This document shows, one piece after another, positions 177-35,053 of a DNA stretch of 64,000 nt (position 1 is the stretch's first letter; the number at the start of each line of letters is the position of its first letter). This DNA is from Nitrospirota bacterium (GTDB lineage Bacteria; Nitrospirota; UBA9217). Position numbers and translations under genes: made by a program. The stretch is taken from assembly GCA_963754875.1 (NCBI GenBank), contig CAVWHO010000017.1, positions 162,254 to 226,253 on the forward strand. The letters run 5' to 3'. The notes below the pieces were generated by a model, which ran no database searches, had not been told where the DNA came from, and saw only the letters and a list, made by a program, of their open reading frames with translations.

Positions 177-1505
177 ATGTTCACCGAACGACTTGAAATG
201 AAAACGGCATTGGCAAGCGTCGTCTTTTTCGCCCTAGTATTTTTTTTTAGCGATCATTATTTGTACTACTCTCTCTTAGAAAATTACGACCTCTCGACTG
301 ATGTTTTTGAAAGCTTAACTCTGGAAGGAAATTTAGGAAGACGGCTAGCGTTTGTGGCGCTTGCTTTATTTGCGATTAGCAGTTTATTGGCCAAGAACCG
401 CCACCGTCTTAAGATTCATGGGGCTCTCGGTTGGATGCTAGCATTATTCTTTCTGTGGTCCCTCATGAGCATTGCCTGGTCCATTGATCCAGGCTTGACC
501 TTCCGCAGACTCGGGGTCTTCATTATTGTTTGCCTCAGTGCCGTCGCCACGGTCAGACTTATCCCGATCAGTTTTCTTCCATCTTTGGCCTTTTTCGTTA
601 CGGCCTCTTATCTACTGGTAGGACTGATCGTAGAGATAAGCTTGGGGACATTTAGACCAATATCAGAGGGATATCGTTTCGCCGGCACTCTCCATCCAAA
701 CATGCAGGGCGTTAATTGCGCCATGATGTTACTTTCAGCTACAACCCTGGCTGGCAGTGGTAAAAGCCGAAAAGCCGTTTTTATCCTCGCTGCTTTTATC
801 GGTTTGCTGGCTTTATGCCTCACCAAGTCCCGGACGGCCTTTGCCGCTATGTTTTTTGCCCTGACCGTGTTCAAAACATTAAGTGGTTCTGCATCAAAGT
901 GTTTAAAAGTCATCTTGGGTATAATATGGATCTTCTGTTTTTCATATCTCCTCTGGGGAGATGATTTGATTTCGGTCTTGGGAAAATGGGTTTTTATGGG
1001 GAGAGCGTCCGAAGGTCTGGATACGCTTGCCGGTCGTATGCAAATATATAAACTAAGTCTGGATTACATCGGCCAGCATCCATTTCACGGTTATGGGTTC
1101 GCTAGTTTTTGGGTGCCCCGTCACATCCGTGAGTTTTCGCAAGCGGTAGGAATAGGCATCAACGGCGCCCACTCCATCTATCTTGAACTTTTGCTCAATG
1201 TTGGACTAGTGGGTTGTATCACCTATGTTTTCATTCTCTTTCTAGGGGTTAAGGATGCATTAAGCTACTATAAAAACACTCAAGCTGCCGAATATGGCTT
1301 TCTATTCATGCTGTTTGTTTTCTCTGTAATGCATGGGATGCTAGAAGGGGCACTAATTCAAGTGTCTTTCGGCTTGTTTCTGTTGATCTGTGGCTTCTTA
1401 CACTTAGCCTTCGGGGCTGTGCCAGCAACCATGCAGTTTGAGGGCGAGCTACAAGATAAGAGGGCCGAGTCTTTACCCTTTCCACGGCAGACAACACCAG
1501 AATAA
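177..1505 (+). CDS. O-antigen ligase / Wzy polymerase family membrane protein
   Basis: Many TM segments; G..HPN, LTKSRT, R..I..HP..GYG and AHSIYL motifs typical of Wzy_C. Confidence 0.8.
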   Translation: MFTERLEMKTALASVVFFALVFFFSDHYLYYSLLENYDLSTDVFESLTLEGNLGRRLAFVALALFAISSLLAKNRHRLKIHGALGWMLALFFLWSLMSIAWSIDPGLTFRRLGVFIIVCLSAVATVRLIPISFLPSLAFFVTASYLLVGLIVEISLGTFRPISEGYRFAGTLHPNMQGVNCAMMLLSATTLAGSGKSRKAVFILAAFIGLLALCLTKSRTAFAAMFFALTVFKTLSGSASKCLKVILGIIWIFCFSYLLWGDDLISVLGKWVFMGRASEGLDTLAGRMQIYKLSLDYIGQHPFHGYGFASFWVPRHIREFSQAVGIGINGAHSIYLELLLNVGLVGCITYVFILFLGVKDALSYYKNTQAAEYGFLFMLFVFSVMHGMLEGALIQVSFGLFLLICGFLHLAFGAVPATMQFEGELQDKRAESLPFPRQTTPE

Positions 1506-26922: not shown

Positions 26923-27183
26923 TCAAGATTTGATGGGATCCCTTTTCAAATAGCAGCTCTCGCAGAAGGCCTTCCCATCAACGGAATAGTAGCCTTTGTT
27001 AGAGCAATCGCGATAAAAATTCCGTGTCGGCGAGCATGCCTCGTTACCGACAGCCGACGGTACGCACAATTGCAATTTGCATGCGGAACAAGTCAGTCTT
27101 TTCGGACAAGGACAGTGCTCGCAGTCTTTGTCAGGACATCCGGGGCATGGCTGCGCTGTTGAAGAATCCACAATAGTCTCCAA
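26923..27183 (-). CDS. Cys-rich small protein
   Basis: 12 Cys, several CxxC; start may be GTG at 27171. Confidence 0.5.
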   Translation of the reverse strand: METIVDSSTAQPCPGCPDKDCEHCPCPKRLTCSACKLQLCVPSAVGNEACSPTRNFYRDCSNKGYYSVDGKAFCESCYLKRDPIKS

Positions 27184-28403: not shown

Positions 28404-28432
28404 TTGACAGCGCTCCCTTTTTTTGCTAAAGT
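28404..28432 (+). promoter_or_regulatory. sigma70-like promoter upstream of the methyltransferase
   Basis: TTGACA-17-TAAAGT with extended TG. Confidence 0.5.
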
Positions 28433-28593
28433 TCCTGCATGACGCGCCACTCCTCAGAGAACATGCCCGTACTGTTTACCCGTTCAAAAACGCTGGCGTT
28501 CTCTATCACGATGGTGAAGTCGCATAACCTCAAGCGGCAATGAAAAGAGGGGGATGTTCAAAGCAGACCAGGACCGTATCTGAGAGGTGACCC

Positions 28594-29418
28594 ATGCAGG
28601 AGGAACAGAAGCACATACCCGGATCGGTCTGAGCGCCGTCGAGCGGCACCGGGGGGTGTTGCCAGGCGGGTCAGCAGCCGGGGCTGCAACCGGAAGAGAT
28701 CAGGAGCGCGGTGCGGACCAAATATTCCGAGGTGGCCCAGTCGGCCTCCGGGAAATTCTCCTACCCCACGGGCCGGGAGGGCGCATGTGCGCTCGGCTAT
28801 GATCCCGCACTCATCGACGCCGCCCTTCCCAGCCTGCTCGAATCCTTCTGCGGTGTGGGCAATCCCTTTTCCCTGTTCCCGATCCAGCCCGGATCGGTCA
28901 TCCTCGATGTCGGATGCGGCGCGGGTTTCGATCTCTCCGTCGCGGCGCGGCTGACCGGTCCCGAAGGCATGGTGCACGGGGTCGATCTGACCGAGGCCAT
29001 GGCGGCACGGGCGCGTGAGAACCTTCACAAGGCAGGCATTGCGAATGTCCGCGTGCAGCAGGTGGGGTCGGAGAGCCTGCCGTTTAAAGACAACACCTTT
29101 GATGCGGTCATTTCGAACGGCGTGATCAATCTCTCGCCTGACAAAGAGACCCTGTTCTGCGAGATCAACCGGGTGCTGAAACCGGGGGGCTGGTTCGGCT
29201 TCGCCGATGTGGTGCTGGAGAAGGAACTGCCCCAGGGCATGGCAGGCAGTGCCGAAGCGTGGTCGCAATGAATCGGCGGCGCGGTCCCGGTCGGGGACCA
29301 TCTCCTGGCGCTCCGGCGGGCGGGCTTTGCAGACATCCTGTTCACCGGCATGACGGGTTTCCGAACTTCTCCCTACACCGAAGGCGCGCTCTTCAGAGCC
29401 AGGAAGAAAGCGGCGTGA
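28594..29418 (+). CDS. ArsM-like SAM methyltransferase with two UGA (Sec) codons, 274 aa
   Basis: GAGAGG RBS; in-frame TGA at 28630 and 29269; CGVGNP, LDVGCGAGFD, ISNGVINLSPDK; WSQ-U-IGGA where ArsM has W..C..GA. Confidence 0.85.
28644..28661 (+). promoter_or_regulatory. SECIS-like hairpin 1
   Basis: CGGCACC-GGGG-GGTGTTG starts after an 11-nt spacer following UGA 28630. Confidence 0.6.
29283..29299 (+). promoter_or_regulatory. SECIS-like hairpin 2
   Basis: GGTCCC-GGTCG-GGGACC starts after an 11-nt spacer following UGA 29269. Confidence 0.7.
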
Positions 29419-34351: not shown

Positions 34352-35053
34352 GTGCTGCGATCATTGAGTACTGTGGGGTCTCAGGACCGTCATCACCATC
34401 CCGCGCTCCTCCTTGACACCATGCGATCGAACAATCCGAAAAATCGCCGTCTGAAGCGATTGCCGCAACACCGGCACAGCAGCGTGGAGGTCGACGTCGA
34501 GTCGCTCCGGTCGCTCGAGAACCGCTGCAACGGCTGCGTCAAGGGAGAACGGTGCTGCTGCTCGTCGTACGAGGTCTGCGTTACCACCGCGGAGTTGAAG
34601 AGGATCATCAAGGTCCTGCCCGAGGCCGCCAAGTTCTGCCCCCATCTCCTGGCCGCAGGAGGATACGACAACGTGTTCGAGGAAGAAGAGCCTGGGCTTT
34701 TTTCCATTGACACGACGGAGGACGGCCTCTGCCTCTTTGCCTACTGGTCCCAGCACCGGGTCCATTGCTCCCTGCACACCGTCGCAACGACACTCGGCCT
34801 GCCCCTGGCGCACGTGAAGCCGAAGGTCTGCCTGCTCTGGCCCCTGCACTTTTCAGAAGGCAACGAGGTCCTGGCCGTGATCAACGATGCATTTCTGTTC
34901 AACTGCAATGCCCGGAAAGCGCCGGGTTCGCGCAGTCTGAGCCCCGGCTTTGCCGAGGCGATTGAACTGGTGTACGGCAAAGGCTGCGGGACCCAGGTGA
35001 AGCAGGCGGCAGAGAACGGGGATCGGCGAACGCTGCTGGTCATCCGGCGGTGA
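34352..35053 (+). CDS. Cys-cluster protein (DUF3109/YkgJ-like); start uncertain
   Basis: CNGC..CCC, CLF, CSLH, KPKVCLLWP. Confidence 0.6.
   Translation: MLRSLSTVGSQDRHHHPALLLDTMRSNNPKNRRLKRLPQHRHSSVEVDVESLRSLENRCNGCVKGERCCCSSYEVCVTTAELKRIIKVLPEAAKFCPHLLAAGGYDNVFEEEEPGLFSIDTTEDGLCLFAYWSQHRVHCSLHTVATTLGLPLAHVKPKVCLLWPLHFSEGNEVLAVINDAFLFNCNARKAPGSRSLSPGFAEAIELVYGKGCGTQVKQAAENGDRRTLLVIRR

Follow-up and report, generated by a model that had tools for sequence, protein, structure and literature searches.

An ArsM-like methyltransferase gene of Nitrospirota with two probable selenocysteine codons, one of them in an N-terminal arm

In the arsenic methyltransferase CmArsM the arsenic is bound by Cys174 and Cys224, and an N-terminal pair, Cys44 and Cys72, re-reduces the bound arsenic (excerpts of PMC6138428). 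Tyr70 contacts the methyl group of SAM, and the human mutant C156S, which is equivalent to a mutation of Cys174, is inactive (both from excerpts of PMC3790734). An arsenite methyltransferase with one selenocysteine (Sec) is listed in the excerpted parts of PMC13188914 and PMC9312934 and credited there to Fomenko et al. 2007. In a table of PMC13188914 the methyltransferase/UXPK-star double selenoprotein family NF047649 is credited to Haft and Tolstoy 2025, and another table row describes MduS by the domain PF13649, a CxxU motif and two Sec. NF047649 is one of three multi-Sec families included there, the others being NF041537 (ArsM/AhpD) and NF041536 (ArsM/DUF2284). The passage of the same source on the bSECIS model gives it as a hairpin with a G early in the loop, 16–37 nt after the UGA.

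Here we describe a related gene within a stretch of 64,000 nucleotides of Nitrospirota DNA (in the following the window), in which one Sec would occupy the Cys224 position of CmArsM and a second one an N-terminal extension of the methyltransferase core.

The read-through gene and its selenocysteine context

The gene and its start region comprise the following features:

28594..29418, plus strand: read-through gene with two UGA codons; its product of 274 aa is an ArsM-like class I SAM methyltransferase (frame, profiles, model and structure matches)
28404..28432, plus strand: sigma-70-like promoter match (10/12, extended -10), probable promoter of the gene (consensus scan only)
28584..28589, plus strand: Shine-Dalgarno-like GAGGTG upstream of ATG 28594 (sequence)
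28711..28713, plus strand: GTG (Val40), start of the 186-aa annotation and possible internal start (ORF call; inside the conserved helix 33–47)

An earlier note on this DNA had described one frame interrupted only by TGA at codons 13 and 226. Translation confirms this, as the frame 28594–29418 contains exactly two internal stops, TGA 28630–28632 (codon 13) and TGA 29269–29271 (codon 226), and is terminated by TGA 29416–29418 directly after the C-terminus RKKAA. Counting also gave the 48 residues claimed to follow the second UGA, and they belong to an ArsM-like fold. The consensus promoter scan returned 3 sites as compared to 0.6 in shuffles, and the start of most homologs is preceded by GAGG- or GGAG-type elements. 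As predicted, standard annotation truncates the protein to 186 aa by starting the open reading frame at GTG 28711, and this product is present in the public protein collection (P0002).

The nearest named loci (81% identity) are from Nitrospirota, and the gene is present in 23 of the 63 genomes of one Nitrospirota family. In public sequencing runs, contigs of close strains cover site 226 in 3/3 and site 13 in 2/3 runs, and none of the listed letter changes falls on these codons; thus, the two UGAs are not assembly errors.

The window's genome (G000) has the complete set of selA, selB, selC and selD, a check that the earlier note had proposed, and all four genes score above cut-off: selA with 604 bits and selB adjoining it with 374 bits, selD with 379 bits and an in-frame TGA of its own, and the tRNA-Sec gene selC with 62.3 bits. 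Among 61 genomes searched, which are kin and not independent of each other, selA was found in 17/17 genomes carrying the TGA-bearing subfamily gene, and the subfamily gene was found in 0/19 genomes without a selA match. selA was likewise present in five additional genomes belonging to other groups. Contigs C14, C7, C13 and C16 of the window's genome hold further candidates consisting of a UGA and a hairpin, with the contexts MsrA-like G-U-F-W-G, T-P-G-U-G-I-C, P-G-C-U-R-T and G-D-U-D-T-T.

The two UGA codons, their hairpins and the N-terminal arm

The elements around the two codons are:

28594..28692, plus strand: N-terminal arm, residues 1–33, predicted to be disordered, with U13 in G-S-V-U-A-P-S (model pLDDT, conservation)
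28630..28632, plus strand: UGA codon 13, likely Sec (phylum census; internal position in the fusions of G027 and G031)
28644..28661, plus strand: SECIS-like hairpin 1, 7 bp, GGGG loop, 11 nt past UGA 13 (folding, comparative pair counts)
29269..29271, plus strand: UGA codon 226, very likely Sec, at the Cys224 position of CmArsM (alignment, conservation)
29283..29299, plus strand: SECIS-like hairpin 2, 6 bp, GGUCG loop, 11 nt past UGA 226 (folding, covariation, RNAalifold)

The hairpins with a G-first loop that had been placed exactly 11 nt past each UGA are indeed found there. Folding of single sequences gave values no better than chance (z -1.3, -0.1, -1.4 and -1.0) and is uninformative, and thus the evidence for the hairpins is comparative. 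The site-2 helix is paired in 98.3% of the cells over 49 distinct rows, with 24 two-sided changes (0/500 shuffles), and RNAalifold recovered it unprompted. The site-1 helix is paired in 76.8% with 15 two-sided changes (0/500 shuffles; slid controls 28–50%), and RNAalifold gave no consensus structure for site 1. Covariation is strong for hairpin 2 and weaker, that is moderate, for hairpin 1. A strict hairpin rule, which was written after the window had been seen, applies to 28/56 site-1 UGAs and 68/119 site-2 UGAs as compared to 590/19026 other in-frame codons, and to 2845/150148 of all TGA triplets in the genome. With a relaxed rule, also post hoc, the numbers are 46/56 at site 1 and 50/52 at site 2, with a background of 506/8320 and 0/20 true terminal TGA stops. 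The final TGA of the gene (29416–29418) has no hairpin after it. The hairpin of the bSECIS model is recognizable at both sites, strongly at 226 and moderately at 13.

Site 226 is TGA in 119/119 parsed loci of the subfamily, a further 16 being not reached or not parsed, and in 30/30 loci of an unselected phylum census, which includes the window's gene and overlaps the earlier loci. U226 aligns with CmArsM Cys224, in line with the suggestion that the second UGA replaces the conserved ArsM Cys in W..C..GA. Gene callers lose the whole subfamily, as 102 of the 120 best homologs in the protein collection are cut off immediately upstream of the second UGA. Another 15 of the 120 have Trp at site 2, most of them also at site 1, and these entries, together with a decayed-looking relative in genome G001, could be taken to mean that the UGAs encode Trp or that the gene is a pseudogene. 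This reading is extremely improbable: TGG occurs at neither site in any of the DNA loci parsed, the gene and its neighbours terminate in TGA, and both codons are retained in homologs with as little as ~47% protein identity. The Trp entries are probably the output of gene callers using a UGA=Trp table. The G001 copy (L031, G001:C1 ~578100–578900) has a leader out of frame and a cut C-terminus with both UGAs remaining.

The earlier note had looked for homologs with Cys or UGA at both sites. At site 226 these exist, as sister groups carry Cys at this position; at site 13 the UGA half of the expectation holds and the Cys half does not. Of the 30 unselected phylum loci, 28 (one of them decayed) carry the arm TGA, and Cys or Trp never takes its place. 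A Cys version of the arm was found in 0/30 census loci, in none of the 24 rows of a second sample and in none of the 25 rows listed, and therefore the classic Cys/Sec-pair test fails at site 13. A homolog search with the arm only returned nothing; since this insensitive search missed even the known arm proteins it is no evidence. No NCBIfam model matched the 39-residue arm.

A larger set of 56 arm loci was picked by hand. The anchor-motif step left out nine loci without the motif and six duplicates, and three of the nine (L028, L030 and L031) were examined later. The lack of any in-frame linker stop in the 56 loci was discarded as evidence, because it follows from how the loci were chosen; it is replaced by the unselected census and by a core-only tree. 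In this tree the arm occurs in 48 of the 49 rows of one clade, the 49th being cut by the contig end. The support of the arm clade is SH-aLRT 98 in the first and 84 in the second tree, both being quick searches with SH-aLRT only, and the second tree left out seven ArsM-type rows and most Planctomycetota-type rows. In the first tree three more arm rows are found among armless relatives, and the forms with a C-terminal tail or AhpD domain make up a separate clade. As many relatives, 53 of the 123 tree rows, have no second Sec, it is dispensable in the wider family.

In two genomes (G027 and G031) the arm is preceded by a further domain:

L028:683-1756 (G027), minus strand: three-UGA fusion of a TsoC-like thioredoxin, the Sec arm and the methyltransferase
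L030:1495-2586 (G031), minus strand: three-UGA fusion of a TsoC-like thioredoxin, the Sec arm and the methyltransferase

The TsoC-like domain is fused in frame, has a UGA of its own and scores 44.6 (G027) and 45.5 bits (G031) against NF045708 with a cut-off of 45. The Cys86 motif of the fusions reads C-P-V-G-N-P. The fusion is present in 2/401 genomes, and as the two rows are sisters inside the arm clade it represents one event.

The arm UGA of the fusions lies ~96–98 residues inside the protein behind an earlier UGA. Since a domain lies on either side of it, so that only read-through yields the fusion protein, it cannot be the stop of a leader peptide there. This bears on the proposal that translation truly ends at UGA 13, releasing a leader peptide of 12 residues, and that the enzyme starts at GTG 28711 with a single Sec. 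Although an AGGAG precedes this GTG, armless relatives exist and some ATG, GTG or TTG is found in the linker at 33/51 loci, the linker from the arm UGA to the core lacks any such start in the remaining 18/51 loci, the positions in the others are scattered, Val40 lies inside helix 33–47 after the nearly invariant Ile36, and a covarying hairpin follows UGA 13. We regard a leader peptide as very improbable.

UGA 13 could also be Sec and serve mainly as a selenium checkpoint that stops translation after 12 residues and not after 225, with a non-catalytic Sec13. Such a role would suit the near-fixed distance from the start to the UGA (ATG exactly 13 codons upstream in 42/56 arm loci), the poorly conserved leader, the variable linker to Cys86 (69–98 residues in the 56 arm loci), the disordered arm, the weaker hairpin 1 and the failure to find a Cys version. 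On the other hand Pro is retained at U-2, U+1 and U+2 with all synonymous codons (at U+2 in 46/56 arm loci, with all four codons in use), which points to selection on the peptide, and the UGA is kept inside the fusion although the earlier UGA would already serve as a checkpoint. A checkpoint as the main function therefore seems rather improbable to us, and we suggest that the arm is probably a redox or ligand arm.

The earlier note had pointed to the N-terminal Cys residues of ArsM. Sec13 is unaligned with them and sits on an added, predicted disordered arm. Its main proposal of a double selenoprotein is borne out by the conservation of both UGAs, the Sec machinery in the genome and the comparative support for the hairpins, and none of the contrary outcomes it had named (a genome devoid of Sec machinery, homologs with Trp or a true stop, an unconserved region upstream of codon 13) occurred. 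It is very likely that both UGAs are translated as Sec.

The active site, its possible partners and the substrate

The predicted model, in which U was entered as C, has a mean pLDDT of 90.9 with a confident core from about residue 31; the arm is unplaced and undocked, with pLDDT below 50 at residues 1–13 and 15–27. The 13 best Foldseek matches are all ArsM/AS3MT structures (TM ~0.6–0.7, E to 9e-19), which agrees with the ArsM-like fold suggested before, and a profile search matched the PF13649 methyltransferase domain. Two positions of the core need to be mentioned:

28849..28851, plus strand: Cys86 (S-F-C-G-V-G-N-P) at the position of CmArsM Tyr70, two residues before Cys72 (alignment)
29119..29121, plus strand: Gly176 at the position of the arsenic-binding Cys174 of CmArsM (alignment)

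Cys86 is invariant in 50 aligned homologs. The Cys174 position is Gly in 115 and Ala in 1 of 135 loci, 19 being unparsed, and the position of Cys72 is occupied by Val88. Cys65 is unconserved, and only one of three alignments places it at the Cys44-type motif. With Cys174 changed to Gly176, Cys72 changed to Val88 and an invariant Cys86 at Tyr70, the active site is rebuilt. Canonical arsenite methylation is thus not assured, as Cys174 is missing and the Cys that stands in for Cys72 lies two residues upstream of it. Class I SAM enzymes donate CH3+ and the methylation of Hg(II) needs a carbanion-type methyl, and therefore mercury methylation is chemically unlikely.

The neighbours in the window, a divergent LuxR-type regulator, a POT transporter and hcp, are uninformative on the substrate, and no arsenic genes are among them. 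Two Cys-rich ORFs without a Pfam match are found at 26926–27183 (minus strand) and 34352–35053 (plus strand) of the window. The arsenic genes of the genome are on another contig, and no ArsM-type gene was seen in the 9 kb listed around them:

G000:C4:2045-5199, minus strand: cluster of an arsC-like gene, acr3 and a permease

Clustering of the neighbourhoods gave no conserved operon for the arm clade, and tblastn of the sequence fetched at the 56 arm loci, with a median length of 4 kb, detected ArsR-like genes in 2 and acr3 in 0. A few arm loci lie behind TsoA-like, ArsR-like or MerT genes. The TsoA-like gene (L054:2166-2651, L055, L062, L103, L150) has a read-through UGA in H-U-I-x-E-C, lies behind a TsoR/ArsR-like gene, scores 102.6 bits against NF045695 (cut-off 170) and is upstream of the arm gene in L054, L055 and L062. 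Directly upstream of the arm methyltransferase of L062 there is also a MerT-like ORF with C-U (451–738, plus strand; NF033560 49 bits vs 130).

Both fusion genes have an ArsR/SmtB gene upstream, and in G031 acr3 is located ~2 kb upstream. The fusion gene of G031 is directly followed by selD and then by a permease, presumably TauE-like, for which the profile scan gave only a weak MamO match, and a partial second copy of the methyltransferase. In the window's genome a stand-alone TsoC-like gene with a UGA is located on another contig behind the same type of ArsR gene as in the fusions:

L237:1547-4401 = G000:C20 ~230546-233400, plus strand: operon of ArsR/SmtB, TsoC-like (with UGA), DsrE-like, TusC-, TusB- and SQR-like genes

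The gene which we take to be DsrE-like has a UGA in U-G-G-C and no model match at 1e-6. This operon contributes two more hidden selenoprotein candidates.

How these proteins might work can be outlined as follows, all catalytic steps being ones that we infer. SelB would read each hairpin and insert Sec. Sec226 and Cys86, the latter in place of the SAM-methyl-contacting Tyr70, would take over from the Cys174/Cys224 pair and bind, next to SAM, a soft metalloid that is most likely As(III) or methyl-As(III). After methyl transfer the oxidised site would be resolved by a swinging Sec13, in analogy to the N-terminal Cys pair of CmArsM, and the arm would be re-reduced by a TsoC-like thioredoxin. In related clades a C-terminal U-x-x-stop tail or an AhpD domain would fill this role. 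The mechanism is supported by the ArsM precedent, by the TsoC fusion and by the related clades which add redox-type Sec by other routes. The loss of Cys174, for which Cys86 would have to compensate, counts against the arsenic reading, as do the lack of arsenic neighbours in the window and the selD gene and permease beside the fusion. We hold the whole chain as tentative and somewhat short of an even chance; for arsenic or antimony as the substrate the chances are about even.

The same protein with two Sec and the arm might instead methylate a chalcogen, that is sulfide, selenide or a persulfide or perselenide on Sec226, and the methyl-S or methyl-Se products could serve detoxification or trafficking. 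The broken arsenic-binding pair fits this proposal, and so do the sister proteins (9 rows) with only the site-2 Cys, Gly at 174 and no Cys86, which suit one-thiol chemistry, a sister methyltransferase with Gly174 and the site-2 Cys that is fused to a NifS-type class V aminotransferase (P0156), the selD gene behind the G031 fusion, and the TusC/TusB/SQR-like sulfur operon headed by the stand-alone TsoC-like gene. Nevertheless, the fold and the best solved relatives are those of arsenic enzymes, acr3, MerT and ArsR-type neighbours occur at some loci, and each fusion clue is a single case. A chalcogen acceptor is the main alternative but appears unlikely.

A further reading, which we judge still less likely, regards the motif G/S-G/S-x-U-x-P as a portable Sec peptide, a swinging redox arm that could be attached to the N-terminus of the core, as in Nitrospirota, or to its C-terminus, as in Thermodesulfobacteriota. 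The arm would pass electrons from a TsoC-type thioredoxin selenoprotein, which is fused to it in the three-UGA form, to the rebuilt Sec226/Cys86 site, and this site would methylate selenide, a persulfide or another substrate that is not arsenite. If true, this would be a new selenium-dependent methylation chemistry and a function for TsoC.

Returning to the metalloid reading, these enzymes escape arsM surveys of anoxic soils and groundwater if arsenic is methylated. Otherwise the name "arsenite methyltransferase" would be wrong for a large group of proteins. With the fusion, TsoC has a candidate partner that can be tested, and the arm, tail, AhpD and TsoC architectures form a natural series on the role of the second Sec in one enzyme.

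Comparison with described families

The earlier note had raised the question whether the protein belongs to MduS. Both have a PF13649 methyltransferase domain and two Sec. However, neither site lies in a CxxU motif, the contexts being G-S-V-U and W-S-Q-U, a comparison made with the table description only. No model named MduS is among the 25 best of 65 NCBIfam matches, and judged from the sequence membership in MduS is unlikely. The nearest models are instead NF047649, NF041537 and NF041536.

With ArsM/AS3MT proper (PRK11873; CmArsM structures 4FR0 and 6CX6) the protein shares the fold, the SAM motif and the Cys224 position, which is Sec226 here. It differs by Gly for Cys174, Val for Cys72, the missing conserved Cys44, the added Sec arm and the lack of an ars operon at this locus. 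The suggested comparison with an ArsM model gave 192.8 bits for PRK11873, which is below its cut-off of 263.

The best match is to NF047649, which covers residues 34–272 with 283.4 bits at a cut-off of 460; three other arm proteins reach 255–279 bits. NF047649 proteins have the same core, the same UxxG Sec, likewise two Sec and a similar U-x-P context of the second Sec. In contrast, their second Sec is near the C-terminal stop (U-x-P-K-stop), whereas here it is in an N-terminal arm, and the two forms fall into separate clades. The tails at the C-terminus read U-[AP]-[PR]-K-stop, which is similar to the arm motif U-[PA]-P; arm and tail occur together in 0 of the 24 parsed loci of the second phylum sample (27 returned). 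NF041537 (ArsM/AhpD, 281.6 bits, cut-off 510) and NF041536 (ArsM/DUF2284, 259.5 bits, cut-off 575) are likewise missed. They have the same core with Sec at the Cys224 position and an extra Sec elsewhere, but the C-terminal AhpD and DUF2284 domains are absent here. The protein has the core of these three families and would work in a similar way, but by sequence score and architecture it is a member of none of them.

The 2025 work of Haft and Tolstoy is said to deal with second Sec sites in unrecognised extensions. In the literature searched, from which this likeliest source is excepted, there is no description of an N-terminal Sec arm on an ArsM-like methyltransferase, and a term search of the main text on deep-Sep (PMC12013277) gave no match. 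The layout of an N-terminal Sec arm combined with an active-site Sec is absent from the catalogues searched. We conclude that the double-selenocysteine gene is real and well supported and that it is an N-terminal-arm variant of a catalogued group of families.
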